A DNA stretch of 64,000 bases from an archaeon (GTDB lineage Archaea; Asgardarchaeota; Thorarchaeia; Thorarchaeales; Thorarchaeaceae). Positions 27,985 to 59,306 of this stretch are shown piece by piece. The notes below the pieces were generated by a model that worked only from the letters and a program-made list of their open reading frames with translations, made no database searches and was not told the origin of the DNA. Positions within the stretch are counted from its first letter, which is position 1; each line of letters begins with the position of its first letter. The position numbers and the translations under genes were made by a program. The stretch spans positions 1-64,000 of the forward strand of contig JAJRWI010000033.1 of NCBI GenBank assembly GCA_024276825.1, in the 5' to 3' direction.

Positions 27985-28208
27985 AGAAGTGGAATAATGG
28001 CAGAGAATCTTGGAGTTTTCACATCTACACTCAGACGTTGGGAACAACACAGGGGGAAGGAGGCCAGGTCCCTGTTCATGAGGACAAAGCCCCTGCGAAC
28101 ACCAATGTTGTGGTGGGTGGCAACACCTGCAGGGGAATGGCCGAACGCATGAGTCCTGTTCAGACGAGTTCACCATTGCGCGACAAGTCTGAACAAGATT
28201 AGGTTGTC
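27985..28208 (+). ncRNA. Stand-alone TnpB omega-RNA-like structured element, copy A
   Basis: Core 28056-28208 is about 90% identical (manual alignment) to 59157-59306 and similar to the tnpB 3' region 46912-47070. Stems CCCCTGC/GCAGGGG, CACCA/TGGTG and GGTG-GCAA-CACC. Confidence 0.7.
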
Positions 28209-28632
28209 AGGAGTTTTAGCTTGGATTCTTGTGCTATTGATGACAGCAACTACAGCTACAAGTAACAATCAGTGATTTTATTGATGAATTTCCGAAGGTC
28301 AGCAATTCTCATATCGGATGACAAGTAATATTGTTATCAATGACACTACCACTACAAAATTAGTCACATGTTACGTAGTGATCGAATCGGTACCAAAACT
28401 GCCCGATGACCTTCAGTTTCCAAATGACCTCCCCAATCTGCCAGTGGCGCATTCCGAGTATTATGCAAATGGCATAGAAATCGGTCAACGCCAGTACCTA
28501 CTGGAGTCTTATTTAACGTGCATAATAATTGCACCTCTACGGATTTATCAGACTGTTATGAGTTGCAACTTAGGAAGACTCCACATTATTTCCAAGAATT
28601 GAGTAGATTCATGCTTGATCAGTAATGCCGCA

Positions 28633-29748
28633 TCAGTCAATCCCGATGTGCTTTAAGGGTTTGTTCAATGTGAAGTCCTCATCAGCTCTCCATGATCGAG
28701 TTGCTTCGTCAAATGTTTCTGCCCAAAGGCCATATCGCTGGGAGTACTTGTAGTCAATGGTCAATAGTTCAAAACTCTCACATATCTTCCAGACTAGTGT
28801 GATCATCTCGGACATGTGTGCCGACGGCATCCTTGCAGACCACACGAACCCAGTGGAGATTTCTCTGATACTTGAGGCGAATGGAAAGTCGCCCTCTCCC
28901 AGTTTGGCTATGAGCCTCTGTGTGACTTCAGGAGGGGCCTTTGCGATTATCATCGAGGTGCTATAGACGTCGAAATGTGTCCAGTTAATGAATACCGTGT
29001 AGGTCTCAATTATCTCCTGAAGACGCTTCAACCTCTTCGAGAACATCTGAGGGACTCCGCGTTCATTCTTGTCAAGGCCAATTTTGTCCATTATCTCAGT
29101 GTTCTTGCGACGTGCATCCATTGTGATCTCTTCAAGGATCTTAGCATCAAGCCCGTCAATATCTATGACATCCTGAGGTTTATCATAAACAGTTTCACCA
29201 TTGAATCTGACATGGCTTGGAGGAGTATTCCACCATCTGTCCCAGTCGAAGTTCCATGTGAGCCTTTCAGAGTCCCAGGCCTCTGGTTTGGGGTGGGTAT
29301 AGGTGGAGCAATAGCCAGGCAGAAGTGTGGGCAGTTCCCTCACACGTTCGACTAGTCCGTGTTCTTTAAGTTTCTTAAAGGCCCGCTCAAGATGTTTCTG
29401 TGTTTCGGGGGGCTGTCTGAACTGAAGAAGTAGTCCGTGCGTACTGCCCCCATATACTCTAGCCCTGTAGAGTGTGTAAGGATGTTCCTCACAGAATTGC
29501 TCTATTCTGACAAGGTCGTCATGGGACCCTGTTTCGACTAGAAAGTCATAGACCTGCAGGCCCAGTCTGATGGGATTGAGTATTGCTTGCACCCCGACAT
29601 AGACCCGCTCTTTCTTCAGGCTGTCTAGCCATGCCTTTGCAGTAGGGGGTGATACTCCAATCTCTTCTGCCAGTCTGGCAGCTGGGGCCATAGGCATCTC
29701 TTGAAGCTTGAATAAGAGATGGAATTTCTGTCTGTTCACTCGATGCAT
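28633..29748 (-). CDS. Double Lrp/AsnC-like wHTH transcription regulator
   Basis: HTH AARLAEEIGVSPPTAKAWL and a second DGLDAKILEEITMDARRKNTEI. Start set at MHRVN to avoid overlapping the upstream gene. Confidence 0.75.
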   Translation of the reverse strand: MHRVNRQKFHLLFKLQEMPMAPAARLAEEIGVSPPTAKAWLDSLKKERVYVGVQAILNPIRLGLQVYDFLVETGSHDDLVRIEQFCEEHPYTLYRARVYGGSTHGLLLQFRQPPETQKHLERAFKKLKEHGLVERVRELPTLLPGYCSTYTHPKPEAWDSERLTWNFDWDRWWNTPPSHVRFNGETVYDKPQDVIDIDGLDAKILEEITMDARRKNTEIMDKIGLDKNERGVPQMFSKRLKRLQEIIETYTVFINWTHFDVYSTSMIIAKAPPEVTQRLIAKLGEGDFPFASSIREISTGFVWSARMPSAHMSEMITLVWKICESFELLTIDYKYSQRYGLWAETFDEATRSWRADEDFTLNKPLKHIGID

Positions 29749-29758
29749 ACCCTCTGTT

Positions 29759-30229
29759 TTAGAAGTAGGCCACAATATCTGGAAGACCCGGCCCTGCTCC
29801 TGTGGGAGGGTCGAATTCCAGATAATCAGTCGTGTATAGTTTTCCAGTGCCAGATCCATAGAGAAATGCAACCATACTGACAGTGTATATTCCACTCTCA
29901 GTTGCCATATTAATGCAATCAAGGTTCAGGGCAGATGTAGGGCACCCATAGATTATCACCTTGAAGGAGTATCCGTTACCCGAGGGTAGCACGAGGTCAA
30001 AATACAGTTCTATCCGTGATGGCTGGATATCATCAAGCTGAAACGCGACAAGAATCTTGATGTCGTCCTCAATCTGATCAGAGTCAAGATCCCCATAGTA
30101 TGCATCTTGTATTGCTATAGACCCAAGTACCAAGGACCTTGTCTGTGCTCTCACTGTGGGAATGGCCATGATACCAACCAAGATGACACAGAGAAGCATC
30201 AACAATCCGCGTGTTCTTACATATCTCAT
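29759..30229 (-). CDS. Secreted hypothetical protein
   Basis: Signal peptide MRYVRTRGLLMLLCVILVG...VRA; DLDSDQIEDD Ca-binding-like loop. Confidence 0.6.
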   Translation of the reverse strand: MRYVRTRGLLMLLCVILVGIMAIPTVRAQTRSLVLGSIAIQDAYYGDLDSDQIEDDIKILVAFQLDDIQPSRIELYFDLVLPSGNGYSFKVIIYGCPTSALNLDCINMATESGIYTVSMVAFLYGSGTGKLYTTDYLEFDPPTGAGPGLPDIVAYF

Positions 30230-30349
30230 TGGTTCATCGCACATTAGGATTACAAAGCCACTTATAAGTGTGGTTTTGCGGATAATTTTAAGAATATTTA
30301 TAAAGCAGTTTTTGTTTATCGCACATACCATTTCGTTGAGGTATCAACC

Positions 30350-31459
30350 TTGAATAAGAAGCCATTTTTCGGTGCGCTCCTGTTATTCCTATTTGGACTA
30401 ACAGTACTGGTTATGCCCACACCCGTCATGGCCAGCCCGGATGGTGCAACAGCCCGTCCAGGAGGCTATGGAGGGAGATGGCGCAATACTGCACCCACAG
30501 TCACAATCGAATCTCCAGAAAACTTGGCCACTGTTGTTGGGACAATCACGATTCAGGCAACTGCTACTGATGCTCAGGATGGTACGCTCACACCTACAAT
30601 CTATATTGATGGTGTTGCTGTAGCAGTGGCAAACTCGTATACTTGGGACACAACAACAGTGGACGATGGATCCCACACAATCGAGGCAAAGGCCACTGAC
30701 AGTGGTGGTCTCACAGGTTCTGATCTTGTCACCGTCACAGTGGACAATGTGGAAGATCCGCCACCCCCACCCCCACCACCAGGCCAGAACAAGTATGCTG
30801 TCATAGTCGGTATCTCCGATTATGCCGCAGTCAACGACTTGACATATTGCGATGAGGACGCTACTGACTGGTACAATTACCTGTCTGGTCTTGGATACAC
30901 AATCAAGCTGTTCGGAGACGGCACAAACTATTACCCACAGTGGGATGGCTATGCGACTGAGTATAACATCAAGACTGCACTTGCAGACTTCATTGCCCAG
31001 GCTGATGAGGATGATATAATCGTCTTTGCCAGTTCAGGGCATGGTACAACATATTCTGGCGGAGAAACCATATGTTGCTGGGACTATGGTGTGGGAGAGA
31101 ATGGCGAGGATGGCTCCTTTACTGATGTGGAGATGGCAAGCGTCTTTGCACCTGCTGTTTGTGAGGTGTTTATCTTCCTCGATCACTGCTACTCAGGCGG
31201 TATGAATGAGGTCATGTCAAACTCTAACGCTGGTAAGTTTTACATGACAACGACCTGCACTGACTCGGGCTATGGGTATGATGTTCCAGAGTACTCCAAT
31301 GGAGCATGGACATACTGGTTCCTTGAGGCCGGGCTTGTTGGTCAAGGCTTCACAAACATGGAGGACTGCTTTAGCTGGGCACTCTCAAACTACCCATATG
31401 GCGGTGCTGACACCCCACAGGAGTTTGATGGTGATCTTACAACCTTCTTCACTCTTTAG
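30350..31459 (+). CDS. Secreted caspase-family (C14/metacaspase-like) protease with Ig-like domain
   Basis: Signal peptide; Big-type Ig domain; poly-Pro linker; KYAVIVGISDY, SSGHG (His) and LDHCYSGG (Cys) dyad. Confidence 0.85.
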   Translation: MNKKPFFGALLLFLFGLTVLVMPTPVMASPDGATARPGGYGGRWRNTAPTVTIESPENLATVVGTITIQATATDAQDGTLTPTIYIDGVAVAVANSYTWDTTTVDDGSHTIEAKATDSGGLTGSDLVTVTVDNVEDPPPPPPPPGQNKYAVIVGISDYAAVNDLTYCDEDATDWYNYLSGLGYTIKLFGDGTNYYPQWDGYATEYNIKTALADFIAQADEDDIIVFASSGHGTTYSGGETICCWDYGVGENGEDGSFTDVEMASVFAPAVCEVFIFLDHCYSGGMNEVMSNSNAGKFYMTTTCTDSGYGYDVPEYSNGAWTYWFLEAGLVGQGFTNMEDCFSWALSNYPYGGADTPQEFDGDLTTFFTL

Positions 31460-31665
31460 GAGCAAGTCTATTTGAAGGCGGGCAATCTGCTTGCCCCCTT
31501 CCCCCCTCTTTTTTGATGAGTGCAATCATTTGGTCATCCAAGTAATAAGATTCAGTTTATAATGGGAATTTCTATTCTTTACATTTCAAAATTCAATCGA
31601 AACGTTATTGACTCACCTAGTTCATTGAATATTACACATGATGATAATTTATGGAGATGATATAA

Positions 31666-32853
31666 GTGTCAGAAAAGATGATACAAGGACTTCGGCAGGA
31701 TGATGGGCCGTGGTTACTTCTGCATATTCTACTACCAATGTTTATGACTCTCTTTTTCTTTGAGAGTCTACGGGTCTTCATCGGACTGATCTACTTTGTC
31801 AATTTGGGAGCAATGACTATTGGTGTGTCTGTGCTTTACATTTTCCTGCTGCTGTCGCCAATTGTGGTTCTGTTCATCAAGAAAATTGGTGCATACAGAA
31901 TAGTAATCTTTAGTGCTGTTGGAATTGTGATCTTTCGTTTGTTGATGGCATTGTTGAGTTGGAACATGTCACTAATGCTTATTACATCAGGCATTGCAAC
32001 AATGTTGTATGGCATATTTGTCGCATCCATCATAATCACACCCCTTCAGAATACCCCGGAACGACTTCCTGGGAGGACAGGGTCCATTTCCATATCTTTT
32101 GCTCTCGCACTTGCCATGGACATCATGTTTCGAGCGATAGGTGGTACATGGGACATCACAATCGGCAGTTATTCCATTGCCATCGTGATCCCACTCACCA
32201 TTATCACATTCATCATCATCTGGTTGATTGGCCCTGTCTGTGGGGCAGTTATTCAGAACAGTTCTAGCACGCCAAAGGCGAAGAAGAGCCGGCTTGTTCG
32301 CATGTTTATGGGAGCGGGATTTGGTGGAGGACTGTTCATGATCTACACATTATTGGGATTTCCGAATGTCGTTGCTAGGTGGACCAACACAAGCTATGAG
32401 TTTAATACAGTGTCTGTCGTAATTGCATTGCTGCTCTATGCAATACTGGTCCAGATACCAAAGGCCAATAATCTAGTGTTCAGGAGGGAGATCATCCTTG
32501 TGTTGAATCTGCTATTAATCGTGGCAGTGATGGACATCATTTACATTCACAGTGTGATTGTGTCAGTGTTTACAGGAATTGCAGTGTTTGCCATGATGGC
32601 TGACCTGAGTGTTTTGTGGGGTATTGTCGTCAGCAGGGGCGGTGATATTGTTGATAGCGGACTGTTCCATTTCTTCGGAATGTTCCTATTCATGTTTCTG
32701 ATCCTGTTCTTCGCTCTGTCCTTTGTAGCGGGGATGATTCTGCCAGCACTGGAGGGAATGATACCGTATCTTTTGATGCTTGCAACTTTTCTGGTGTTCA
32801 TTGTCAGTGTTGGAGTATCGGTTTCTGGATTCGTAAGGGAGGTGGAAGAGTAA
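31666..32853 (+). CDS. Multi-pass membrane protein (putative CWH43/PGAP2IP TM region)
   Basis: About 11-12 TM helices; stop overlaps the start of the EEP gene (TAATG). Confidence 0.65.
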   Translation: MSEKMIQGLRQDDGPWLLLHILLPMFMTLFFFESLRVFIGLIYFVNLGAMTIGVSVLYIFLLLSPIVVLFIKKIGAYRIVIFSAVGIVIFRLLMALLSWNMSLMLITSGIATMLYGIFVASIIITPLQNTPERLPGRTGSISISFALALAMDIMFRAIGGTWDITIGSYSIAIVIPLTIITFIIIWLIGPVCGAVIQNSSSTPKAKKSRLVRMFMGAGFGGGLFMIYTLLGFPNVVARWTNTSYEFNTVSVVIALLLYAILVQIPKANNLVFRREIILVLNLLLIVAVMDIIYIHSVIVSVFTGIAVFAMMADLSVLWGIVVSRGGDIVDSGLFHFFGMFLFMFLILFFALSFVAGMILPALEGMIPYLLMLATFLVFIVSVGVSVSGFVREVEE

Positions 32854-33701
32854 TGATGACAAGAAATCTCAAGTTTACAATAGTGATATCTGCAATACTG
32901 TTCATCGGGACAATGGCAGGCCTGCTCATCACATTGACACCTGCGCCTGACACCGAACCAACAACAACACTCACTCTTATGACCTATAACATCTATCAGG
33001 GTTACACGCCAGATGGAGGAGTCAATCTCGAAGTGATTCGCGACACAATTAGAGATGCAAGCCCCGACATTGTAGGGCTTCAAGAGTCAGACATGAACAG
33101 AATAAGTTCAATGAATATAGACTCGATCCGATGGTTGGCCACTCAGTTGAACATGTATAGTTATTTTGGACCACCAACAAGTGAACAGATAATAGGTGTC
33201 GCACTACTCTCCAAATATCCAATCATCAGTAGTGCATATCATCTTCTGACCTCTGAGGAACTCCCAAGGGTCCTCATTGAGGCTACTATTCAAGTGGGCT
33301 CTGAGCAGGTGAGTGTCTTTGTGGTCCATTTGGGACTGTCATATGAAGACAGAACCACTCAAGCTGCAGAGGCCATGCAATATGTCGATGCTGCCATGGC
33401 GCCAAAGATTCTCATGGGCGACTTTAACACTTTGCCCACGGGTGAACCAGAACCAGGCTCGGATGATCCACGGGTGGACACAATTTATACTGACATATCT
33501 GCACATCTCAATGACACTTGGACTGCAGCAGGGCATCCGCAGAATTCTAATGATGGTTTCACTTGGCCAAGCTATGGCCCATACGAGAGGATAGACTATA
33601 TCTGGGTGAGCCCCGATTTCACTGTCAGCTCTTGTACTGTGATAAGCAGTGCAACAGGTAGTGATCATTTGCCTGTAGTGGCAACAGTTCAGATGCCATG
33701 A
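32853..33701 (+). CDS. Endonuclease/exonuclease/phosphatase (EEP) family protein, CWH43 C-terminal-like
   Basis: MTYNI, VGLQESD, MGDFN, RIDYIW and GSDHLPV motifs; N-terminal TM. Confidence 0.85.
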   Translation: MMTRNLKFTIVISAILFIGTMAGLLITLTPAPDTEPTTTLTLMTYNIYQGYTPDGGVNLEVIRDTIRDASPDIVGLQESDMNRISSMNIDSIRWLATQLNMYSYFGPPTSEQIIGVALLSKYPIISSAYHLLTSEELPRVLIEATIQVGSEQVSVFVVHLGLSYEDRTTQAAEAMQYVDAAMAPKILMGDFNTLPTGEPEPGSDDPRVDTIYTDISAHLNDTWTAAGHPQNSNDGFTWPSYGPYERIDYIWVSPDFTVSSCTVISSATGSDHLPVVATVQMP

Positions 33702-33770
33702 TGGAAAATAGATAATAATGAGAGATCTACTGATAGGACCACATTGGTTAATCAGTATGATCTTCTTTTT

Positions 33771-34052
33771 CTATTCTATAATCTGACCATCGCGATCTAT
33801 TGTGAGTTCGTCCAATCGGAGCAGTAGCCGGTCTGGCACAAGTCGTAAAGCATTGATAAAATTGTGCCAGTTTTTCACAGTGCCCGCATCATCGCTAGTA
33901 ATTGCATCTAGAAGGTCTGAGATTCTCCCAGTTTCCGATCCAGTCAAAGGATGGACAAATTGGATTTCATAGTCCCCATCAGGATCATAGATTATGCAAT
34001 TCACAAAGAGTGAGGAGTCTTCAGAATACCGGATAACTACTCGTTTCATCAT
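33771..34052 (-). CDS. Hypothetical protein
   Basis: 93-aa ORF co-oriented downstream of RNase Z. Confidence 0.5.
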   Translation of the reverse strand: MMKRVVIRYSEDSSLFVNCIIYDPDGDYEIQFVHPLTGSETGRISDLLDAITSDDAGTVKNWHNFINALRLVPDRLLLRLDELTIDRDGQIIE

Positions 34053-34075
34053 CGCTAGCCACTATTGAACATTAA

Positions 34076-35047
34076 TCAGGCAATATTATCACATGCAGAC
34101 ATATTACTTGTGTTACTTCTTTTGACCACACCTTCTTTGTCAATCTCAAGTCGCATGAGATCATGAGCCAAGATGGAGTTCTTGAATATGTGCTGAGCCT
34201 CTTTAAGTATCTCAAGACCATTGCCATAACGTGGACTGTAATGGGTCAGTGCCAGGTATTTCACACCTGCGTCCCTTGCAAGTTCAGCAGCTTGTGCTGC
34301 AGTCATGTGCCCACGTTCCTCTGCCAGTTCTGCATGGCTGGTGCAATACATTGCTTCGGAAATCAATAGGGTGGCATTTTGGGATACTTGCCTGAGAGTT
34401 TCACAGGGTCTAGTATCACCAGTGTACACTATCTTTATCGGAGGAGGAGGTGTGTCCGTGACCTCTTCAGGTCTGATTGTCCGCCCGTCATCTAGCTTTA
34501 CTGACTTCCCTAAGGCAAGGTCTTTCCACAGAGGGCCTTTGGGGACTCCAAGTTCACTTGCAAGCTGAGGGATAAAATGACCTCTAGGTCTTTGATAGAG
34601 AATCTCATAACCTAGGGCATACCCCCTGTGATTGACCTCGAAAGCGGAGACCTTTATATCGTCAATCTCGATGATTGGTCCCGCTTCAATGGCATAGACT
34701 GTGGTTTCGAAAGTGGTGCCAAGGTGAATTGTATCTTGATTGATTCTAACATATTCTATCAGTTCCTTCGGGCCAAAGATCTGGAGGGGTCTGATTCTGC
34801 CTAATAGAGAGAACCGCAATAAAAGACCAGGTAGTCCAAGAATATGGTCAGCATGCATGTGTGATATGAATATGACCATGTGTTTGTTGTTCCCCAATCG
34901 GGCACGTTCAAATTGACGTTGCACATCTTCCCCGGCATCAAACAGTAGATTCCATCCTTGATACCTGATTGCAACAGCGGGGTGATTACGGTTCTCAGTG
35001 GGAATACTCCCGCCACTTCCAAGGAACACAACCTCAAGACGTGCCAT
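34076..35047 (-). CDS. rnz: Ribonuclease Z
   Basis: FLGSGGSIP, SHMHADHILG, GP exosite, YTGDTRP, THYSPRY. Confidence 0.93.
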   Translation of the reverse strand: MARLEVVFLGSGGSIPTENRNHPAVAIRYQGWNLLFDAGEDVQRQFERARLGNNKHMVIFISHMHADHILGLPGLLLRFSLLGRIRPLQIFGPKELIEYVRINQDTIHLGTTFETTVYAIEAGPIIEIDDIKVSAFEVNHRGYALGYEILYQRPRGHFIPQLASELGVPKGPLWKDLALGKSVKLDDGRTIRPEEVTDTPPPPIKIVYTGDTRPCETLRQVSQNATLLISEAMYCTSHAELAEERGHMTAAQAAELARDAGVKYLALTHYSPRYGNGLEILKEAQHIFKNSILAHDLMRLEIDKEGVVKRSNTSNMSACDNIA

Positions 35048-35102
35048 TATGATGCCTCTTGTTTCACACTGCGTTTGCATCTCATAACGATTATGATTGA
35101 AC

Positions 35103-36557
35103 TCAGGCCAAGTCGATAGACAGACAATTGTTATGGATTACTTCTTTTCGTACCGTCGAGTATGTCCGAACATCAAAAAAGGAGGAGTCGCACTTCCAGT
35201 TCATTGATTGTAAATCAAATATCTTTATGACATCAAGAGGGCGCTTCTCGCCAGCTGTGATCACATGGGTTTCAAGATTGTCCACCATACTACGTTCTTC
35301 CTCCAAGATTGAAACTATCTGCTTTGCTTGACCCATGGGAGTGCTGGACAGTATTATCACCTTTTTAATGGATGGCCGGTCGATGTTCTCTAACAGGGAG
35401 AAGAATGAGAAGGGCAATTTGCTCATTGCAATATGTAGCATTGCAGCTGTGGAGGAGTCAGCCACTGAAACCACGCCCTCTGTAAGAGCAGGAATCTTGA
35501 CTATTATGCGAGGCAAGACAGCCCGTTCGTTGATTATCTCACTCCGCTTACGGAATACAATGCTCCTTGATAGCTTTGTTGCTATTGAGACGTCTTGAAC
35601 CTTTGAGTCATAGTCTTTTAGCAGATGCTTCATTACCAATAGCTTGGATTTTCCGAGTCTGCTTATTGGTGCATTGAGGGTGGTTCTTTTGGTTTCACCA
35701 ACCACTAATTCATCTACATGCTTTCTCAGCAAAAGTCGGAAGTGAAGAAGGTCTATTCGCCATTGGTTTGACTTTCGATCATAATAGGAGTCATTGAAAC
35801 TTGTCGTGCCTGGTGATAACCACCATGCGCTGACATTGTCGCTGCTATTTCGTAAATCAACAACCAGCTTTCTAAAACCTTTGGAGAATGCAGCAGGGAT
35901 CAACAAAGTCTGATAGACCATGGCGCGCTCTGCGTCAGCAAATATTGTAGAAGTGACATACGGTCCTGAGAGAATGAATAAGGGATTTGAGAGGATTAGC
36001 AAGATGCGCTCAAAGGCCAACTGATTGGCATTGATGATACCGACTCGACGTAGTATTCCAGATGATGCAAGCCGTATCCAGGCCCGTCTAGCCTTGGAAT
36101 ATTTAATTCCCGTCAATGCTTCAAGTTCAGACAGTCTTACTTCTGGATTGCCAAAGACGGCCTTCAAGATGACAATCTCGGATTCCTTGAGTTTTGAGAT
36201 GTTGGCATGATATAATTCATCAATGAGGGATAAGATGTCTCGAGATGTTATAACCTCCACATCACCTAGAGCATGTACAGACTCAAGGCGTTTTTTGAGG
36301 TCAGAACATAGACTTCCCCGATAACTGGAAACAATTGCATGGATACGTTTTAGGTCAGAAGTCATCTGAAACTGATCGTGATGCTCGTAGCTCTCTAGAT
36401 GGCATAACACCTTGAGAACAGTTCGTGCATCAGGGCTCAGTCTTTGTTTATAGGTGCCCTGTCCTTGCGTCATCAATACATCATTAGATTCGGACTGATC
36501 CAGCACAAAGACAACCCCTATCAACAATTCTGTTTGTACTACGAGCAAGGGCACCAA
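35103..36557 (-). CDS. Multi-wHTH (Lrp-like) putative regulator
   Basis: Two HTH-like segments (LSELEALTGIKYSKARRAW; VQDVSIATKLSRSIVFRK); start uncertain. Confidence 0.55.
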   Translation of the reverse strand: MVPLLVVQTELLIGVVFVLDQSESNDVLMTQGQGTYKQRLSPDARTVLKVLCHLESYEHHDQFQMTSDLKRIHAIVSSYRGSLCSDLKKRLESVHALGDVEVITSRDILSLIDELYHANISKLKESEIVILKAVFGNPEVRLSELEALTGIKYSKARRAWIRLASSGILRRVGIINANQLAFERILLILSNPLFILSGPYVTSTIFADAERAMVYQTLLIPAAFSKGFRKLVVDLRNSSDNVSAWWLSPGTTSFNDSYYDRKSNQWRIDLLHFRLLLRKHVDELVVGETKRTTLNAPISRLGKSKLLVMKHLLKDYDSKVQDVSIATKLSRSIVFRKRSEIINERAVLPRIIVKIPALTEGVVSVADSSTAAMLHIAMSKLPFSFFSLLENIDRPSIKKVIILSSTPMGQAKQIVSILEEERSMVDNLETHVITAGEKRPLDVIKIFDLQSMNWKCDSSFFDVRTYSTVRKEVIHNNCLSIDLA

Positions 36558-44878: not shown

Positions 44879-44994
44879 GCCCGGATAGCCAAGCGGTTAC
44901 GGCGGCAGCCTGGAGACGCACACACATGGTGTGTCAGAACAGGCAGCTGCTCTCCCTTTGGGAGGCGCGAGTTCGATCCTCGCTCCGGGCGCCA
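44879..44994 (+). tRNA. tRNA-Ser(GGA) with 29-nt intron at 37/38 (44916-44944), encoded CCA
   Basis: Acceptor GCCCGGA/TCCGGGC, G73, anticodon stem GCAGC/GCTGC, CT-GGA-G|A loop, long variable arm CTCCC-TTT-GGGAG, T-loop GTTCGATC. Confidence 0.92.
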
Positions 44995-45301
44995 CGCCTC
45001 TTGCACCATATAATTAACTCATAAATTATTCGATATTTTGGGGGTACCAGTTTTATGTTTTAGAGTTTATAAGGGGGATGGTTTTAAAAATATAAATAAA
45101 ATTTGGGCAAAATTGGAACTCTGTAGATTTAATATTAAGCGTTATTATTACTTATTTTTCAAAATACAGGAGTTATAGAGTTTTTGCTTAATAAGTTTAA
45201 ATATTATCGCTAGTATAAAAATACGAGGTTAATAACGAAATGCGAAGAAACAAGGATGGTGAACTTAACAGCTAGAACAGGTCAGAAGTTTAAATATTCA
45301 G

Positions 45302-46951
45302 GTGAATAAAATGGCCAATACGATGGGCGTAGTCATAGCAGTGAAAGTACCAATAAAAACTGATAGAATGACTAAAAGAGCAAGACAACGATTACGACAA
45401 ATCGTTGGCCGAGACACCAGAACAATAAAAGCTCACTTGGGAGTAATTGAGCAGCATGAAAAGCAGCTAATTATTGGAAGGAGAAAAACAAGGATAAACG
45501 AGTCATTATTGCACGAGTTGACTTTGACAGCAATTTATGTGAAGAAAGGAGCATCCCAAAGGCTTTCAGTACTTCATGATTTGAAACAGAGATTCCAGAG
45601 AATTTCGCAAAATGAACTAGCAGAGTGTCGACGCACCGCGATAGCAATATGGGAATCATATCTTGCTTTAAGAGAGAAGAGAGCAAGTGTATCTAGACCT
45701 ACAAGCAAAAACAGATCAGGAAGAATTCCCAGATGGATTTTCACTCAAAGGTTCAATTTGATTGAGGACAATAACTCAGCAGCACGATGGTGGTTGGATA
45801 TTCGTGATTCTTTAGACTCACGAAGATTGAATCGGAGAACACATAGACGATTGAGGATACCACTATCAATCTCACCAATCCATCTTGAACAATTGTCAAA
45901 AGGAAAAATCAAGGCAATTCAGATATTCACAAAGGATGGAAAATGGTGGGTCACATTTTCAGTACAAATCGAATTTGAAAAACTTCCTGAAGAACTCAAG
46001 CCTCTAGCAGTATTGGGCATAGATCTAGGAATAAAGAAAACCATATGCAGTACACTCTTAACTGAGTCAAAAGTTTCTGAAACAAGATATTTCAAGCAAG
46101 ATGAAAAAATAGCCTTGATGGAAAAGTATGACCGACTGGTTTCTTCATTGCAAATTCAGAGAGATAATCATTCTAGTGAAGGTGTAATTCAACGATTGAA
46201 GGCAATTCGTCGAAAGAGACAGCGAGTTTCAATTGAGTATGACAGACTAATCGTTCATCAGCTTCTTGAGTATATTGCTGAGCTTGAAAAAAAATATACA
46301 TTGTACATAGCCATTGGGAAGGTATTTGGGATTCGTAATACTGCAAAACGTGGAAATAGGAGAGGTAAAAGATTCCGAGGAATGATTCATAGATGGACAT
46401 TTCGAAGAGTCACAAATATGATAAAGCATAGTTTAGCACAAAGAGGATGGGTTACAGAAGGCAAGGATTCCAGAATTATCCTTGTTCACGAGGCATGGAC
46501 AAGTATTATTTGTTGGAAATGTGGTCACAAGGGTCGTCGTCCAAAGCAGTCACTCTTTATATGCCCCCATTGTGGATTTAAAACAAATGCGGATCGAAAT
46601 GGCTCGTTAAATATTGCTCGGCGCTCCATTAGGCTCATTCGTCACTTGAATGAGAGTGGACTAGGGCGTTGGTCGTCTCCAGAGAGAGGGACAGCCCCGA
46701 AAGCCCAAGGGAAAATTTCTCGAGGGAAGTCTACACTCCCCAAGAGACCACCAATCTTGATGAAAGGGGAGTCCGCGGTTGTTCGCAGTGTCCAAATGGA
46801 CCTTTTCAGTTTTTGTGAGAAAACTGATTTGAGCGATCATGACCCTGCCGTGGAAAAAGCCGTGGAAAATCTTACTGCTGTTGAAAGTGATGTTTCAACA
46901 TCAAAGCAGAAGAAGGAAGCCAGGTCTATGGGAGGAATGCCATTCCAATGA
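45302..46951 (+). CDS. tnpB: TnpB/Cas12-like RNA-guided endonuclease with rearranged RuvC-II
   Basis: RuvC-I LGIDLG, zinc finger CWKC...CPHC, RuvC-III NADRNGSLNIA. Canonical RuvC-II Glu is absent (IAIGKV); alternative Glu in VHEAWTS. Confidence 0.9.
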   Translation: MNKMANTMGVVIAVKVPIKTDRMTKRARQRLRQIVGRDTRTIKAHLGVIEQHEKQLIIGRRKTRINESLLHELTLTAIYVKKGASQRLSVLHDLKQRFQRISQNELAECRRTAIAIWESYLALREKRASVSRPTSKNRSGRIPRWIFTQRFNLIEDNNSAARWWLDIRDSLDSRRLNRRTHRRLRIPLSISPIHLEQLSKGKIKAIQIFTKDGKWWVTFSVQIEFEKLPEELKPLAVLGIDLGIKKTICSTLLTESKVSETRYFKQDEKIALMEKYDRLVSSLQIQRDNHSSEGVIQRLKAIRRKRQRVSIEYDRLIVHQLLEYIAELEKKYTLYIAIGKVFGIRNTAKRGNRRGKRFRGMIHRWTFRRVTNMIKHSLAQRGWVTEGKDSRIILVHEAWTSIICWKCGHKGRRPKQSLFICPHCGFKTNADRNGSLNIARRSIRLIRHLNESGLGRWSSPERGTAPKAQGKISRGKSTLPKRPPILMKGESAVVRSVQMDLFSFCEKTDLSDHDPAVEKAVENLTAVESDVSTSKQKKEARSMGGMPFQ

Positions 46952-47070
46952 TAATAGACAAAGTCCTTGCTAACTCTATATTTGCAGTATGGAGAGTGGT
47001 GACACTTGGCAGGGAAAGGGTGGAACACGGAAGTCTGAAGTTGAGTTCACTCATCTAATTGACAGGTCAG
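46831..47070 (+). ncRNA. Putative cis omega-RNA overlapping the tnpB 3' end
   Basis: Position typical of TnpB omega-RNA. Stems CCTTGC/GCAGGG and AGTG-GTGA-CACT; GAGTTCAC end motif; homologous to the two stand-alone copies. Confidence 0.7.
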
Positions 47071-47308
47071 CTCGCTCCGGGCACATTTAGTGGTCGGAGT
47101 CTTTCTTTTTCTCAAGTCATCAAGCAAGGAGTTTAGTCATTAGTTCTGACATTCCATCCAAATTCGGTTTATATGTCATAGTGACTGAATGAATATACCA
47201 TAACATAGCAGATATATTATGTAACCAGAAGTACGAACTAATTGGTCTTTGATTTTTATGCAAGGACTAAGACATTGTGCATGATGATCCGTATGAGGAA
47301 TAAGACAG

Positions 47309-51562: not shown

Positions 51563-51623
51563 GATTGTATCAATCCAGAGAGCATGACAAAGCTGAAATC
51601 TGTCTTTTGGTTGCTCTTAATCA

Positions 51624-52163: not shown

Positions 52164-52180
52164 TTGCATAACAAGAAGTA

Positions 52181-52526
52181 GCCCTGGTGCAGGGAGTAGC
52201 CCCAATTTTGTTCGGTCATCCCCCGTCACCAGGAGATGACTTTACGACATCAGACTATGCCCCCTACCCTCCACCTCGGGCCGACACTTCATTGGTGGAT
52301 TCTTGGGGTTGCTACCCGGTGATGGACCGTTTCAACCCGGCCAGACCACTACTCAGCAGCTTGAGTGCTGCATCATCGCTTGGCATGATCTGGAGGTGTC
52401 GTTTCTGTTTCCAGAGCAAGGCTCTCACCTTCCTGCTCTCGCAGGACCGGCGTCGGCATGTAGTTGGGAGCTTCCTCAGCTCCAGTCGAGTGACCGGTAC
52501 CGTCAGTCGTGCTCCTGCTCCAGGGC
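52181..52526 (-). ncRNA. rnpB: Archaeal RNase P RNA
   Basis: Minus strand shows the P1 helix GCCCTGGAGCAGG/CCTGCACCAGGGC, GAGGAAGCTCC, ACAGAAAC, GTTGAAACGG and GAACAAAATTGGGGCTAC conserved regions; lies downstream of cbf5. Confidence 0.88.
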
Positions 52527-52579
52527 CATTAAAGAGTAAGCAAGAACCATTAAGAACTTCTCGATGTGGCGTGGCAGAG

Positions 52580-53611
52580 TTATTTTTCCTTTTTCTTCCA
52601 CATCGGTGGATAACGCCCTCGTTCCATGAAGACTCGTTCTGTCTTTGCAATGATTCCACTAGATATCTTTGCAATACGTTCACTTGTTTCCAAGGCCTTA
52701 GCGACCGCTATGGCCTCACCCTTTAGTGTCTTTATCACGACCAAGTCGTTCTTCTTTATCCCACTGCTTAAACTCACAACGCCATTAGCAGCCAAGTCAG
52801 CACCATGGCATATCGCATCGACCGCACTGTCACGAACATTGAGTTCCGGCAGGTGTTGGAGGGCAAATTCGATGGGTAGGAGATACTTCCGGAGCTCGGA
52901 CTCATCACCATCTTCTTTCCAGAAGTGATAGGCATCCTTCAGATCATAGAGAGAACATAGATAGTTGTTATCCTCCTTGAAGGGACCAACTCTGGTCCTC
53001 CTGAGTTCCCTCATGTTACCCCCAACACCAACTGCCTCACCAACATCGAAGCAGAGTTTCCGGATGTATGTCCCTGCTTGGCACCCCACACGAAACAGAA
53101 CAAGACGACCCTTAATCTCGAGTATGTCAATGTAGTAGATGGTCCTGACCCTGAGAACTCGTTTCACTGAGGACCTCAATGGGGGTCGCTGGTATATCTT
53201 GCCCACAAACTCAAACATCACCTCTCTTATCGTGTCCTCATTGACCCGTTCATGCAGCTCGAGAACGCAGACATATTCTTTTCCTGCAGGGAGTAATGCC
53301 TGCATCACCTTTGTGGCATTCTCAATCCCCATGGGTAGTACTCCAGTGACCCCAGGATCTAGTGTGCCCCCATGCCCCACACGTTTTGTGCCAAGAATTC
53401 TCCTGACCCAGGTAGCTACCTCATGGCTTGTCGGACCAGCAGGCTTGTCAAGGCAGAGGACAGAGTTCTTCATCAGATATTCTATGGGAAGATTGCTCAA
53501 ATCGCTGAAGCCAAATTCGGGATTAGTAGTATCATGTGTTCTTATGATTAGTTCTCTGGGTCTGTCCGAGGGGAGAATGGAAGGCACTGTGATCCCCCAT
53601 CTGTGATTCAC
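52580..53611 (-). CDS. cbf5: H/ACA pseudouridine synthase Cbf5/TruB
   Basis: DKPAGPTSHEV, GHGGTLDP, QRPPLRSSVKR; PUA domain. Confidence 0.95.
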   Translation of the reverse strand: MNHRWGITVPSILPSDRPRELIIRTHDTTNPEFGFSDLSNLPIEYLMKNSVLCLDKPAGPTSHEVATWVRRILGTKRVGHGGTLDPGVTGVLPMGIENATKVMQALLPAGKEYVCVLELHERVNEDTIREVMFEFVGKIYQRPPLRSSVKRVLRVRTIYYIDILEIKGRLVLFRVGCQAGTYIRKLCFDVGEAVGVGGNMRELRRTRVGPFKEDNNYLCSLYDLKDAYHFWKEDGDESELRKYLLPIEFALQHLPELNVRDSAVDAICHGADLAANGVVSLSSGIKKNDLVVIKTLKGEAIAVAKALETSERIAKISSGIIAKTERVFMERGRYPPMWKKKEK

Positions 53612-53627
53612 AAGAGGAGACTGTTGC

Positions 53628-53909
53628 TCACTCGCTCAATCGAATCTTCGTCCTGAAGGTCTCTTCGAGGCCAGCCTCTTTGAGTGCCTTCTCCACAGAG
53701 TTGTCATCAGCGCCCTCTTTTATCGGGAGTGTTTTGTCAATGGGTTCAATATGACGAGTATTGACACGTCTTCGTCTGACACCACTGATATGCTTTGGGC
53801 CAGTGACGACAACGTACTTGCCATTCATCTTCTCTACAATAACACAGTAACTTCCAGCCTCTCGGCCCATGGTCTTAACACAGACTCTTCCAACTTCGAA
53901 TAATCTCAT
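53628..53909 (-). CDS. rpl14e: 50S ribosomal protein eL14
   Basis: EVGRVCVKTMGREAG, GVRRRRVN. Confidence 0.93.
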   Translation of the reverse strand: MRLFEVGRVCVKTMGREAGSYCVIVEKMNGKYVVVTGPKHISGVRRRRVNTRHIEPIDKTLPIKEGADDNSVEKALKEAGLEETFRTKIRLSE

Positions 53910-54046
53910 ATTTTTACACCTCAACTCAACCGCAGTCAAACTGAACCAGCAAGTCACCTCAATGGCTCATCCTTTGGTAGTGAGAATGAGGTGTTCTCAG
54001 GCACTTTCAATATAGATATTCCGATTGGACGAGAACTCTGCAAGTA

Positions 54047-54607
54047 TTATGAGTCTGGCACCTTCTGCTCAAAGAATGTTTCAAGGGCAATGATCACAAT
54101 CCGCACTACACCCTCAAGGTCAAAAAGTTCTGTATTAATGATGAGGTCATAGATTGTCAGATCAGTGATGTCAATGTCATAAAACCGCTTGTATCGCTCG
54201 CGTTCACTTGCTTCACGCACAGTGGTTTCACGAAGAGCGTCTTCATATTGCACATCATCGCGACCTGCTATTCTCATTACCCGGACCTCCATCGGCGCGA
54301 CCAGCAGTATCTTAAAGTCAGCATGCTCTCCCGCCATCCATGCTGAGAGTTGCCCGTCAATTACAACATTGCCCTTGCTAGCTTCAGTCCTGAGTCGCTC
54401 ATCCAGTTCTCTGTCAATCTCATCATTCTCCTGTGCAATCTTACTGAACTCCTCAAGGCTGTATCCGCGTTCTCTAGCAATAGCCCTAAAAATCATCCCT
54501 GCAGAAACCCTTCTTAGACCAAAGTGCTGGGCAATCCTGTCAGCTACGGAACTCTTGCCTGTGCCATGTAGTCCGCTGATTGTGACTGTGCGTGGCATAA
54601 TATTCAC
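54047..54607 (-). CDS. cmk: Cytidylate kinase
   Basis: TISGLHGTGKSS, SAGMIFR; conserved synteny. Confidence 0.9.
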   Translation of the reverse strand: MNIMPRTVTISGLHGTGKSSVADRIAQHFGLRRVSAGMIFRAIARERGYSLEEFSKIAQENDEIDRELDERLRTEASKGNVVIDGQLSAWMAGEHADFKILLVAPMEVRVMRIAGRDDVQYEDALRETTVREASERERYKRFYDIDITDLTIYDLIINTELFDLEGVVRIVIIALETFFEQKVPDS

Positions 54608-54691
54608 TCGTCAATAATTCCAACTTAAGAATTTAGTCATCAACCAATACTACTCAATCTACAGGTGAGCTGGGAAATGGCAGACTACAGT

Positions 54692-54961
54692 TTACAGTGC
54701 TCGGACCTTTCTGATGATACCACGCCTAACTGCTCTGGGACTAAGTTTTCCGCCATAGGGGCGATTAGGTCTCTTTGACGAACGGCTTGCCTTTCGATTC
54801 AGGCCATGCTTTGCCCTCTTGGGCAGGGATATCCTCGAGCCGGTTTCTGGACAGACACCTTCGGCCCGGTAATACTTCTGACGGTGCATAACAAGGCGTC
54901 CACCTGGGGTCTTCACTAGTCTGTTTGCTCTTCCTCTTGTCAGTTGTCCCGGTCGAGGCAT
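54692..54961 (-). CDS. rpl34e: 50S ribosomal protein eL34
   Basis: KTPGGRLV, KRPNRPYGG. Confidence 0.92.
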   Translation of the reverse strand: MPRPGQLTRGRANRLVKTPGGRLVMHRQKYYRAEGVCPETGSRISLPKRAKHGLNRKASRSSKRPNRPYGGKLSPRAVRRGIIRKVRAL

Positions 54962-55030
54962 TTACATCAACTCATCTCTATTGTTCTTACTGGACTCGGA
55001 ATGATTCTCTTTTAAGGAAAGCGGTAAGTG

Positions 55031-55603
55031 TCATGTCATTATCTGGACACCTTGTATCCTCTGAAGTATCTGACCAAGGCCAAGACCTACCAGAAAATAG
55101 AATGGCCAGAACCAGAGACCAAACCCACCAGACACAGGTACTCCTATGAAGCCCTCAAGGAAGGGGAGCAATTTGTGCACATTGAATGGGATTATGGCAA
55201 CAATAGTATCGCTGAGTCCCGTTGGAGACGATGGATTGACATATGTATAGAAGGTCCGCAACCATGAGAACACCAGCACAAATGGTATGAAGAAGAACAT
55301 CATTGGCTTGCAACGAGCGGTGAGCATCTCTCGCTGAATACGATCAATGTAGGGCTTTCGTCTCTTAACCTTTCTGAGGAGTTTCTCATTGCCTGTTTCG
55401 TTTGCCTTTTTCTGTAGTGCCTGAAACTGCTTGATTTCAACCTGATAACGGCGTAGTCTTCGTATGTCCGAGAATCGCTTCATAGCAAGATTGCTGATGC
55501 TAGATATCGTCAACGACACCAATACGACAAATACTGTTGCGCCAGGAGGCTGCTTGATTGCATCCATCAACCAGATAAAGAACAGTGTGACGATATCCTG
55601 CAT
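55031..55603 (-). CDS. EMC3/TMCO1 (DUF106, Oxa1-superfamily) membrane protein
   Basis: TM - coiled coil - KPM..TM - W..FY TM; sits between adk and L34e as in other archaea. Confidence 0.85.
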   Translation of the reverse strand: MQDIVTLFFIWLMDAIKQPPGATVFVVLVSLTISSISNLAMKRFSDIRRLRRYQVEIKQFQALQKKANETGNEKLLRKVKRRKPYIDRIQREMLTARCKPMMFFFIPFVLVFSWLRTFYTYVNPSSPTGLSDTIVAIIPFNVHKLLPFLEGFIGVPVSGGFGLWFWPFYFLVGLGLGQILQRIQGVQIMT

Positions 55604-55609
55604 GTTTTT

Positions 55610-56215
55610 TCACTCCATGATTGATTCAGCAAGTTGTGCTGCTGCCTCTTCTACTTTGCCCTCCCTGTTTAATATCCTTCGGACAGTGGCTCCTGTGAGG
55701 GTGCCAGCCGCAGCCGCAGCGGCCCGACACATCTCCTGATGAATTCTAATCTCGTCAGTCATTTGTTCGTCTCGTGCGCGGGTTTCATCGGATGCTCTTC
55801 TGCTCGCAATGTTCTCGGGATTTGCCTCAACAAGTATGATTGTCTTTGGCTGAATTGCCTTTACAACCCATTCAGGAAGACCTATCAGATAACCATTCTT
55901 TGTGAGGATGAGTGTATGAGTGTCAACAATTACACGAGTGCTCTTGCTCTTCTCAGCAATTGATTCTCCAGCAATCCTCTGGATCTCCCTCTGCTGTGCA
56001 GTAGGCATCTTTCGCATCTCATCACGGTCCTTCACAAGACCTCTTTTTGATGCCACCTCAAACATCTCGGTACCAAAGTTTAGGACCAGCACATCCTCGC
56101 CATGCCTCTCCTTGACTATCTCAACGGCGGTGTTGATCACAGTGGTCTTTCCAACTCCAGGGATTCCTGTGACAATGACTACATTTCTTGGCTCACTCAT
56201 TATGCCTGTCTCCAT
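55610..56215 (-). CDS. adkA: Archaeal adenylate kinase
   Basis: VTGIPGVGKTT, NFGTEM, DRDEMRK, DTH, GLP. Confidence 0.93.
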   Translation of the reverse strand: METGIMSEPRNVVIVTGIPGVGKTTVINTAVEIVKERHGEDVLVLNFGTEMFEVASKRGLVKDRDEMRKMPTAQQREIQRIAGESIAEKSKSTRVIVDTHTLILTKNGYLIGLPEWVVKAIQPKTIILVEANPENIASRRASDETRARDEQMTDEIRIHQEMCRAAAAAAGTLTGATVRRILNREGKVEEAAAQLAESIME

Positions 56216-56431
56216 GAAACTAACGAGATTTGTTCAATTCCATCCTGAGCGCTTTATATGTCATTCTGTTGAACCGACTTGCCATTGTGTGTAATCGTTC
56301 TCTCCAAATAGTGCCCCTGCATCGCTTTCTGTAAGATTGGCCAATAAACTCCTTCTGAATTACCTGGTCTAAACTCTAGACTAATGTAAAAATGTGGGAT
56401 ATGTTATTTTGATTGAGATGACCAAATACTA

Positions 56432-58245
56432 ATGACCCAGAAGACCAATCCCTCTGGCATGTCATATATAGGCAGATCGTGGTTGGAGTGCTCATCGCAT
56501 TGTTCATCGGATCTGCAATTATTCTTATCACTCCACAGAACTTCGTGTTTGGCTCCGTTTCAGAGGGTGACGAGGTATCGAGAACAACTGGCCATTCTCT
56601 CCATGACCTTGGACTTGCAGGAGATGATATTTTCACGCTCCTCGATACCTCGAACCTCACCTCCAGAGCTGGCTGGCTAACAAAAGTCACACTGGACAAT
56701 GATTATGGAGTAAATGCCATGCAAGAGATCAATGGGCTGAACATAGACGGTGCTGGAGCATGGATTAATCTCTATTATTACTTAAACATCAATGTTGAAG
56801 ACTATGACACACTCAACTTCACTCTGTCAGTAGAGTCTGTTCAGGACGAGTTCATTCTTGAAATGAACGCCTACTTTAGACTATTATGGTTGGGCTCCTT
56901 AAAGGCGGAGAACAGGACGAATATTGAACATGCTGGCCAACAAACACTCACCTTGAATGTATCTATGGACTGGCTTCGAAACAGCACCAGTAGTTGGATT
57001 ACTCAAGTGCGTTTTGAGATCTGGCTTCATCTAGAAACCTATTCTTCTCCGGTCATAAGACATGCTACTGCAACTGCATCATCTTCAAGACTCCTTTTCC
57101 CCCTCCTGATCGACTTTCAAGACCTCTCTGAGAACAGCATCTACGACCAACCCGAAACACGCTATCTCATAAGGGATCCCCTCATCAACATCACTAGTAT
57201 CTCTGGCAATGAAACAGGACTTCTCATACAGTGGACTAATAATGAACTGATATTCCTGCCTTCTGGAAACTATTCAATCAGCTATGGCTGGCTCAAGTTG
57301 CACATTTACAACTCCAAGACTCATATGAACTATACACATGTCGACTCTTTCGCATTGACTCTGGATGCAGCTGGGAGATTTATGGAAATACGCCCTCCAA
57401 TAACACGAATTGACCTCGATATCAATGAGGGCATTCTGTTCAGCATTTTCTTCGAAGATCCCTATTCTTCATCAATTGATTTCATCTATTACATCAACAA
57501 CTATGTGGCACATTCTAAATCAGCGTTCTATATCCCTGACATGTATGCCACAATACGGGTTGAGATCACACTCAAAATACCTCAATATCCCTCTCTCGCA
57601 AGGACTATTGATATTGATGAGTCCCATGACTTGATACTTCATTCTCGATTCCCTTATCACCCTGTCCTTGATCTTTTAGTTTCATTCCATGTGAGTCTTC
57701 GAAAGGCAATGAAACCATTCGCTCCAACAGGTTGGACTTGCAGAGAACGCCTTCTGCCAACATTATTGATGTTCATAAGCTACATACTTCCCTGGGCAGC
57801 CTCTGAACAGGTGGTTTCCAGCAACATTGGTGTGATCAATTTCTCGAGAATCTACTTCCTTCCCGCTGGTATTGAGATTCTGAAAAACGAACAAGGATCC
57901 GCTATTGCTTCTATTCTAGGTATCAGCAATCCATAGTCAGACTCGCCTCTCAACATCTGGGACATGTTCGGTCTGATTTCCGTTGTGGCAATGCTTTTTT
58001 GAATACCTATACTGATAATGCTTGTCAACCTGCTTAACGGCTCGTCAATTGACTCTGGACTGACAACGCTTCTCTCATTTGGAACTCCTGGAACAGCTGC
58101 TATTCTGACTGCAGTTTCCTTTGCAAGTTTCATTGTTCTCTATGGTGTGATACCTACAATCCTCTCATTTGCCATTGTCATCTGGAGGTCCTTGGCCCAG
58201 ACAAAGAAATTGAAGACTCTCCACAAGAAACTGAGCCGCAACTGA
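56432..58245 (+). pseudogene. Interrupted secreted/membrane protein gene
   Basis: ORFs 56479-57936 and 58018-58245 are in one frame, separated by TAG (57934) and TGA (58000) within continuous TM-like sequence. Probable frameshift near the 5' end. Confidence 0.6.
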
Positions 58246-58282
58246 GGTGCAATCATTTATGTCATTACACGCTATCAAGTAG

Positions 58283-58894
58283 TTGATGATGATGAACAAG
58301 ATTGACTTCAAGAAAACCCTCAAGGAACTCTATCTGCCTCCAAGGAGGCCCGTGCTCGTGGATGTTCCCGAGATGCAGTTCCTCATGATCGACGGTGCAG
58401 GACCGCCCGAGAATGAAGAGTACCAGTCCGCCATTCAGATTCTCTATGGGGTCTCATTTCCTATGAAGTTCAAGCTCAAAAAAGCTGGTGTTGTGGACTA
58501 TACGGTCCCCCCTCTTGAAGGCCTTTGGTGGGTTGAGGCCTCTGACACCTTTGACATCTCTCAGCGTGATGATTGGCGATGGACTGCAATGATAATGCAG
58601 CCAGAACAGGTCACACAAGACCTCGTCATTGAAACAATCGAGGAGGTCGAAGAGAAAAAGGGAATTGAGATTCAAAACCGCCTGCGACTGGAAACATTTC
58701 ATGAGGGGCGCTCAGCACAGATCATGCACATTGGCCCTTACAGTGCTGAAGGACCGACTATCCAGAAACTCCACGACTTCATTGAGGCTGAAGGTCTCTC
58801 ACCTAGGGGAAAACATCATGAGATATACCTCAGTGATCCTCGCCGTGCCGCTCCTGATAGACTTAAGACTGTGATTAGACAGCCAGTTTCATAG
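58283..58894 (+). CDS. GyrI-like small-molecule-binding domain protein
   Basis: DFKKTLKELY, VPPLEGLWW, HIGPYSAE, HHEIYLSDPRR. Confidence 0.88.
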   Translation: MMMMNKIDFKKTLKELYLPPRRPVLVDVPEMQFLMIDGAGPPENEEYQSAIQILYGVSFPMKFKLKKAGVVDYTVPPLEGLWWVEASDTFDISQRDDWRWTAMIMQPEQVTQDLVIETIEEVEEKKGIEIQNRLRLETFHEGRSAQIMHIGPYSAEGPTIQKLHDFIEAEGLSPRGKHHEIYLSDPRRAAPDRLKTVIRQPVS

Positions 58895-59075
58895 TTGGAT
58901 AGCAATCAAAAGAACATCTAATGATATACAGTAAAATTGAGGGGGGGTTAAATAGTCTCATCAGAGATCAAAGTCTGAAATGTGCCCAGTGCCATTCCTG
59001 GGTGGACGGGACTGAGATGTCCAAGAATGTCCAATTTACAATGAACGGCACAGACAATATGAAACCACCCTGTGT

Positions 59076-59306
59076 GAGCACGACGACCCCGCCGTGGTAG
59101 GAAATGCAGAAACCCCCATTGTGTCTGAATATAATGCGACCGGGACAACATAGGGAGAAGGAGGCCAGGTCCCTGTTCATGAGTACAAAGCCCCTGCGAA
59201 CACCGATGTTTCGGTGGGTGGTGACATCTGCAGGGGAAGGGCTGAACGCATGAGTCCTGTTCAGACGAGTTCATCAAGTGACAAGTCTGAACAAGATTAG
59301 GTTGTC
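59076..59306 (+). ncRNA. Stand-alone TnpB omega-RNA-like structured element, copy B
   Basis: Homologous to copy A and to the tnpB tail (GACCC(T/C)GCCGTGG, GAAGGA(A/G)GCCAGGTC). Stems CACCGA/TCGGTG and GGTG-GTGA-CATC. Confidence 0.7.

Follow-up and report, generated by a model that had tools for sequence, protein, structure and literature searches.

Protein-less IS607-type derivatives with TnpB omega-RNA-like scaffolds in a genome of the Thorarchaeaceae

The DNA analysed here (the window) is a stretch of 64,000 nucleotides from an archaeon of the family Thorarchaeaceae (Asgardarchaeota; assembly GCA_024276825.1, contig JAJRWI010000033.1, positions 1 to 64,000 of the forward strand). It contains two similar intergenic elements, copy A (28045–28208) and copy B (59080–59306), and between them a tnpB gene whose 3' end overlaps an omega-RNA region, the cis copy. 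The explanation that we favour, with moderate confidence, is that A and B are protein-less derivatives of an IS607-type transposon that have retained the scaffold of a TnpB omega RNA and are served in trans by TnpB for selfish retention. An initial annotation of the window had described A, B and the cis copy as a dispersed scaffold family; the three copies are real, but the family is far larger, with at least 17 members in the genome.

The likeness of A to B is close, as had been noticed, and amounts to 89–90% identity over 160–168 nt. With window positions 28040–28220 as the query, a BLAST search of the genome matches B (59142–59306) at 89% over 168 nt (E 1.6e-58), and a trimmed query gives 90%. 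The blocks listed in the initial annotation as lying in the same order in A, in B and at the 3' end of tnpB (46831–47070) are present, and so are the changes that preserve pairing, GGTG-GCAA-CACC against GGTG-GTGA-CATC in one hairpin and CACCA..TGGTG against CACCG..CGGTG in another stem. Its view that A and B resemble each other more than either resembles the cis copy is also borne out. The cis and A/B scaffolds have all blocks in common at an identity of only ~70%. The end points given there, 28208 and 59306, prove to be the exact positions at which similarity stops among all copies, at ...GATTAGGTTGTC. One pairing proposed there, of GACAAGTC with GACAGGTC, is probably coincidental, while the overall order of the blocks was right.

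Homology to the omega-RNA region of tnpB is established by a covariance model, R1, built from 54 cis copies of the tnpB 3' region and containing no A/B-type sequence. In a scan of the genome R1 finds seven A/B-type copies at E-values of 1e-31 to 4e-8, among them B at full length (model positions 1–250, plus strand, E 2.6e-24) and A (plus strand, E 4e-8). The 3'-terminal stem and the TAGGT(Y)RTC end match between the cis and A/B subfamilies; a search of Rfam gave no family for the A/B elements. The right end is sharp, in that similarity is gone directly after ...GGTTGTC and is followed by variable sequence, with each flank unique. At the position where a guide would lie, the flank of A (28209–28230, plus strand) is matched nowhere else in the genome over 17 nt or more, and that of B (59307–59328, plus strand) heads toward the 3' end of an actin gene (59360–60499, minus strand).

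Substitutions within the scaffolds are those expected of a paired RNA. In a structure made by hand for 13 A/B-type copies, 92.8% of cells are in standard pairs, as against 38–50% when the partners are slid, and both partners have changed in six pairs. Of the 15 distinct single transitions in the five core helices, every one gives G-U and none A-C (binomial p = 3e-5); these pairing figures are not formal probabilities, because the copies are related. In unpaired scaffold columns and in the gene stubs described below, the transitions that would break pairs (G>A, T>C) are the commoner kinds. Two copies of about 650 nt, C4 and C28:82, are 91% identical in the scaffold core and 59%, 72% and 78% identical in the tnpA stub, the left end and the tnpB stub respectively. 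For the 54 cis regions RNAalifold gives 40 pairs, with compensatory changes in 23 of the 40. The claim of structural selection made in the initial annotation is upheld by these patterns, which argue that selection acted on an RNA fold.

Both copies had been described as lacking an adjacent tnpB or transposase gene, which is correct for intact genes but overlooks stubs. Copy A is preceded by a left end of 106 nt (27939–28044, plus strand) that consists of a conserved leader of ~58 nt and, from the ATG at 27997, the opening 16 codons of a tnpA of IS607 type; these codons encode a MerR-type helix-turn-helix (HTH) segment MAENLGVFTSTLRRWE and are fused directly to the scaffold. Missing from A are the 5' ~70 nt of the full RNA region, so that the 5' strand of the long-range helix and the 5' hairpin are gone. 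Copy B is preceded by a decayed tnpB 3' stub (58946–59079, plus strand) that aligns with the tnpB tail of a relic on contig C81 and with the 3' coding region of tnpB; it carries the box TTAAATAG at 58948–58955 and GGACTGAG at 59009–59016, and has no left end.

When the scaffold and the region preceding copy A are used as BLAST queries, the family members are found on nine contigs of the assembly, which is 2.9 Mb in size and 98% complete; the left-end block is present at 14 or more genomic sites. Copies that bear a right end all finish in ...(G/T)TYAGGTTGTC and are unrelated beyond it. The left end, present in most copies, contains an ATG followed by codons for MA(E/K)xLGVSTSTLRRWE(R)(Q/K)GL...RTxGGHRRY, and the longer stub of C4 is matched by Pfam MerR (1.5e-12) and weakly by the NCBIfam IS607 transposase model (5.8e-4). 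The C81 relic joins 109 residues of an IS607 TnpA (NF033518, 1e-22, including the YARVSS serine region) to the zinc finger and RuvC-III of a TnpB (PF07282, 2.5e-7); its 3' sequence runs on into the sequence that precedes copy B, and no recognisable scaffold was found after its tnpB tail. The relic (G000 C81:166292–166758; L017:1370–1836, minus strand) represents a second IS607 lineage, in which a frameshifting deletion has joined the TnpA N-terminus to the TnpB tail. The tnpA and tnpB stubs, together with the gene order of this relic, indicate that the parent was an IS607-type element with tnpA followed by tnpB, and that the copies are internal deletion derivatives keeping the left end, the tnpB tail or both, in addition to the right end.

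At least five deletion classes can be distinguished. In the shortest, of ~175 nt, a GAACG microhomology marks the junction between the left end and the last ~65 nt, and the 7–8 copies all have this one junction; a decayed example lies in the window at 20788–20944 on the minus strand, recognised by a left-end BLAST match (20928–20878) and by alignment with this class. Copy A, at 270 nt, has a junction unique in this genome, and the C7 copy measures ~350 nt. The class of ~610–680 nt contains a tnpA stub that extends to YARVSS, a tnpB tail and a full scaffold, and comprises four copies with one junction, two of them split over contig ends (C47/C36, and both ends of C12). B and C67 are relics without a left end. 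Because one junction is common to several copies in each of them, the ~175-nt and ~650-nt classes must have multiplied after gene loss, and so behaved as miniature inverted-repeat transposable elements (MITEs). Both ends without an intact gene are kept by A, C4, C28:82, C7 and the short class, and not by B, a 5'-truncated relic.

At both ends of C12 and at the starts of C47 and C36 the contigs break inside ~650-nt mini-elements, and their terminal ~95–113 nt are mutually identical; these identities are artefacts, because the assembly breaks at the repeat. We considered whether the C12 contig-end copies might hide a full-length tnpB and rejected this, as the matching ends C47 and C36 carry the ~650-nt deletion class.

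The one intact tnpB of the genome (45311–46951, plus strand) is identified by Pfam PF07282 (5e-12), NCBIfam guided_TnpB (4e-29), a family alignment and PDB matches. It belongs to an element without tnpA, the left end of which (45222–45310, plus strand) shows TACGAGGTTAATAAC, GGTGAACTTAAC and GGTCAGAAG and a TTTAAATATT box 13 nt before the ATG, a layout likewise seen upstream of homologous tnpB genes in other Thorarchaeota. The protein has the RuvC-I Asp, a zinc finger and the RuvC-III motif NADRN; at RuvC-II the Glu is replaced by Gly (IAIGK). We rejected the idea that it is nuclease-dead for want of the RuvC-II Glu, since no member of the family departs from the Gly: each of the 32 homologues aligned from Thorarchaeota (~555 aa, 52–58% identical) has it (YVAIGRLKNIR), along with an NADxN RuvC-III motif, and TnpB clades with such a rearranged RuvC-II (RIIr, Glu to Gly) have been described as probably active (PMC10691335).

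The cis omega-RNA region (46836–47070, plus strand; R1 E 7e-63) overlaps the last 116 nt of the tnpB reading frame and ends in ...GACAGGTCAG. Eighty homologous tnpB loci were fetched from an alignment-based contig scan; in them the nucleotide sequence is conserved from a point inside the final ~115 codons until ~120 nt beyond the stop codon, where conservation breaks off abruptly, and across 53 homologous loci it stops at the position equivalent to 47070. The conserved C-terminal tail of TnpB, ~100 residues long, probably reflects the overlapping RNA. A GTTCACTCA motif has been reported downstream of Asgard tnpB genes (PMC10691335), and GTTCACTCA is a near-invariant block of the cis scaffold here. 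The Gly at RuvC-II and the NADxN RuvC-III are further likenesses to the RIIr and Asgard-linked TnpB groups of that report; a difference is that the stretch before GTTCACTCA is not hypervariable here, the variable flank starting ~25 nt after it.

The guide position of the cis copy (47071–47092, plus strand) begins with 12 nt (CTCGCTCCGGGC) that repeat the 3' end of a tRNA gene at 44979–44990, and this 12-mer has two matches in the window (44979–44990 and 47071–47082) where none is expected. The intact tnpB element may have inserted into the tRNA 3' end. The 2.08-kb stretch between the two repeats consists of the whole insertion sequence (IS) and ~230 nt of AT-rich DNA. The tRNA itself is an Rfam match at 44879–44991 (113 nt) that ARAGORN does not call, presumably because of an intron.

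Scaffold matches outnumber matches to the TnpB body in related genomes as well. In 31 genomes of the same taxonomic family there are 292 matches to the scaffold model (E <= 1e-5) and ~100 to a profile of the TnpB body (residues 100–430), where the counts are of matches and not of copies, some body matches are pieces of one gene, and fragmentation of metagenome-assembled genomes (MAGs) inflates the number of orphan scaffolds. Per genome, scaffold and body matches are 8 and 1 in G000, 27 and 6 in G026, 20 and 4 in G003, and 64 and 8 in G012. Upstream of many of the best-scoring scaffolds there is a match only to TnpB residues ~445–559, and in an alignment of 16 such loci tnpB is decayed further upstream, with high conservation from the GGACTAGG block onward. 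The 5' parts of these orphan modules hold decayed tnpB sequence and a different conserved motif, and showed no similarity to the left end found upstream of full-length tnpB genes.

Most of the 14 scaffold loci fetched from G012 are elements of ~640 nt with a common left end and a sharp right end, in which a TTTATTAGG box lies ~25–30 nt before GGACTAGG. An equivalent box is CTTAAATT in the ~650-nt class of the present genome and TTAAATAG in B, and corresponds to the LNIA codons TTAAATATT of the intact gene (46607–46615). This box is a candidate archaeal promoter for the RNA. In most of the G012 loci (L136–L149) the near-invariant GTTCACTCA loop of the terminal hairpin has been swapped for an unrelated short sequence, and the stem is kept.

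The working model that we consider most likely is as follows. Each module would be transcribed from the promoter region of the left end or from the TATA-like box derived from the tnpB LNIA codons, and its RNA would be bound in trans by a TnpB, either that of the window or a closer relative now lost or unassembled. As the scaffold ends at the right end of the element, the guide would be the DNA flanking the insertion, and the RNA would direct cutting of an empty or excised site that matches its own flank. The mini-element would then be restored by recombination, which amounts to selfish homing, a behaviour shown for the TnpBs of IS605 and IS607. Here the system is probably an ageing one and may no longer be active, because there is no intact tnpA, the one tnpB is of a sister subfamily, the copies are 10–25% diverged and some are decayed.

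Several points weigh against the model. Without an intact tnpA the elements cannot now excise, which leaves a homing function nothing to act on. The genome search found a single tnpB, and it is of the sister subfamily; its scaffold differs from A/B by ~30%, so that recognition of A/B by that TnpB is only predicted. The RNA itself is incomplete in A, which lacks the 5' part, and in the short class, which retains just the terminal hairpin. Some of the pairing-compatible substitutions may date from autonomous ancestors and not from the orphan state. Finally, no autonomous tnpA–tnpB parent with an A/B-type scaffold was found in the relatives and metagenomes searched. A DNA search of 60 other genomes of the family gave two weak matches only, both at loci with tnpB but no tnpA; metagenome contigs scanned with an exact pattern for the A/B type gave no matches, a contig scan with the single TnpB as query found nothing, and at none of the 80 tnpB loci from the alignment scan does a tnpA N-terminus lie within 2.5 kb. 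In the 98%-complete assembly itself there is no resolvase above the cut-off and no Y1 transposase, with the proviso that a MAG may miss repeats. The flanks at the left ends yielded no clear transposon-associated motif (TAM), and the 22-nt flanks at the guide position have no second match in the genome beyond chance.

Full-length IS607 TnpA proteins of Thorarchaeota do exist, and three that were looked up are encoded by solitary genes with no tnpB beside them. At four loci, L115–L118 (JAVYKB010000277, JAHQWO010000187, SDNZ01000058 and CAYHAA010000022), an intact IS607-type tnpA of 200–205 aa has no tnpB nearby, and each abuts the 3' end of a large gene on the opposite strand without Pfam matches, for which the longest called product is 1655 residues, two of these large genes being cut by the end of the contig or of the fetched locus. 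The solitary tnpA genes may be domesticated, or may encode transposases able to mobilise mini-elements.

Among the alternatives, the one that survives best is that the copies are neutral fossils, the dead remains (3' ends and mini-elements) of an IS607/TnpB transposon now extinct, with an inherited structure and no present selection. The absence of an intact tnpA, the different subfamily of the sole tnpB, the divergence among copies and the 5' truncation of A are all as this predicts; C28:1937, C28:34435 and the window element at 20788–20944 are clearly degraded, and where partial copies have lost the 5' side of the main stem, the 3' side has decayed. However, the scaffold is conserved far better than the stubs of the same elements, the helix transitions keep pairing against a background that favours the breaking kinds and include changes found in deletion derivatives, and in related genomes no form scores higher or is more numerous than the scaffold-only module. 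We regard neutral fossils as an unlikely account, with an appreciable minority chance of being right.

A bolder proposal than the ageing system that we favour is that omega-RNA-only mini-transposons are living RNA genes of the Thorarchaeota, which outnumber tnpB by ~3:1 and would be loaded in trans onto a few TnpBs with the rearranged site, the single TnpB here accepting A/B scaffolds despite ~30% divergence. We hold this to be doubtful. If it were true, one nuclease would serve a large and changing set of guides, and such a system could be drawn into host functions such as the targeting of other mobile elements or the control of genes.

It is also conceivable that the right-end hairpins are kept as a DNA-level requirement of the transposase in cis, with no RNA made. 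Transposon ends are always selected in mobile copies, and the short MITE class has multiplied with only the last ~65 nt, including the terminal 9-bp stem. Yet the longer copies are best conserved in the ~100 nt that precede the terminal hairpin, a stretch that the short class can do without, and the strand-specific tolerance of G-U-type changes points to RNA or to single strands. Moreover, the stubs indicate a serine recombinase, and the IS607 enzyme acts on double-stranded ends without need of a hairpin. These considerations make the requirement for DNA ends a very improbable explanation.

The host-directed, CRISPR-array-free multi-guide system put forward in the initial annotation, in which a domesticated TnpB would be programmed by dispersed RNA genes to cut or repress chosen targets, has on its side one tnpB alongside about eight near-complete scaffolds, constraint at the RNA level, a rearranged RuvC-II site treated as probably still active (PMC10691335) and the known action of stand-alone omega RNAs in trans, but it is not indicated and we judge it very improbable, because the scaffolds are the right-end modules of internally deleted IS607-type remnants, some classes of which multiplied as MITEs, every copy lying with tnpA or tnpB stubs, because the guide-position flanks without a second genome match are simply insertion flanks, because the scaffold of the tnpB is of a different subfamily and because A is truncated; in addition, there is no DNA-level conservation outside the species beyond the two weak matches among 60 other family genomes, and the tnpB is part of an ordinary IS that has both ends and a cis RNA of its own. 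A simpler reading is that TnpB is used selfishly in trans, on the lines proposed for palindrome-associated transposable elements (PATEs) and stand-alone omega RNAs (10.1101/2023.03.14.532601; PMC10691335).

The elements are of a described kind, because stand-alone omega RNAs and omega-RNA-bearing PATEs have already been reported; the finding extends that phenomenon to a new host lineage and an IS607-type background, and offers no new principle. According to Altae-Tran et al. (2023, PMC10691335), who cite the 2021 OMEGA study, stand-alone omega RNAs are mobilised, lack an effector or transposase, occur in genomes with effector loci and act in trans. The likeness to that description lies in mobilised modules of scaffold plus guide without an adjacent effector, with an effector locus elsewhere in the genome; the differences from it are that the present elements are of TnpB type, in an Asgard archaeon, and of IS607-type origin with visible stubs, that the resident TnpB is of a sister subfamily, and that use in trans is predicted here. 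PATEs, which are minimal IS200/IS605 elements, frequently carry an omega RNA for which TnpB would have to be supplied in trans (Meers et al. 2023, 10.1101/2023.03.14.532601), and resemble the present elements in being protein-less, in having both ends and an omega RNA, in needing TnpB and transposase in trans and in numbering many copies per genome. PATEs are elements of the Y1 transposase, which acts on single-stranded DNA hairpins, whereas the present ones carry the 5' end of a gene for a serine recombinase with MerR-type HTH and no autonomous partner was found in this genome. With the IS607 family they have in common the stub order (tnpA N-terminus, tnpB C-terminus, structured right end), a MerR-type HTH with a resolvase N-terminus, and asymmetric ends; they differ in that no complete copy is present here, all members being internal deletion derivatives.

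If the modules are expressed and loaded, they would be a natural case of one TnpB with many dispersed guide-RNA genes, in which RNA modules and not nuclease genes are the abundant and best-conserved part of a transposon. The family would then bear on how guide RNA and nuclease came to be separated into genes of their own, a step toward CRISPR arrays and the Fanzor systems of eukaryotes, to which Asgard archaea are the closest archaeal lineage. It would bear also on the exploitation of RNA-guided homing by non-autonomous elements and, through the natural truncation classes, on which parts of the ~235-nt scaffold are needed.

The remaining observations concern the wider genome. A Cas1 domain (PF01867, 3.8e-69) encoded at the start of a contig of G000 (C11:11–664) may belong to a CRISPR Cas1 or to an Asgard transposon-type Cas1, the kind linked to some Asgard TnpB groups in PMC10691335. 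Within the window, the host context is given by the actin gene, an encoded Arf-type GTPase and the fact that the homologues of the TnpB come from Thorarchaeota. An archaeal RNase P RNA lies at 52185–52522 on the minus strand (Rfam, 169 bits).

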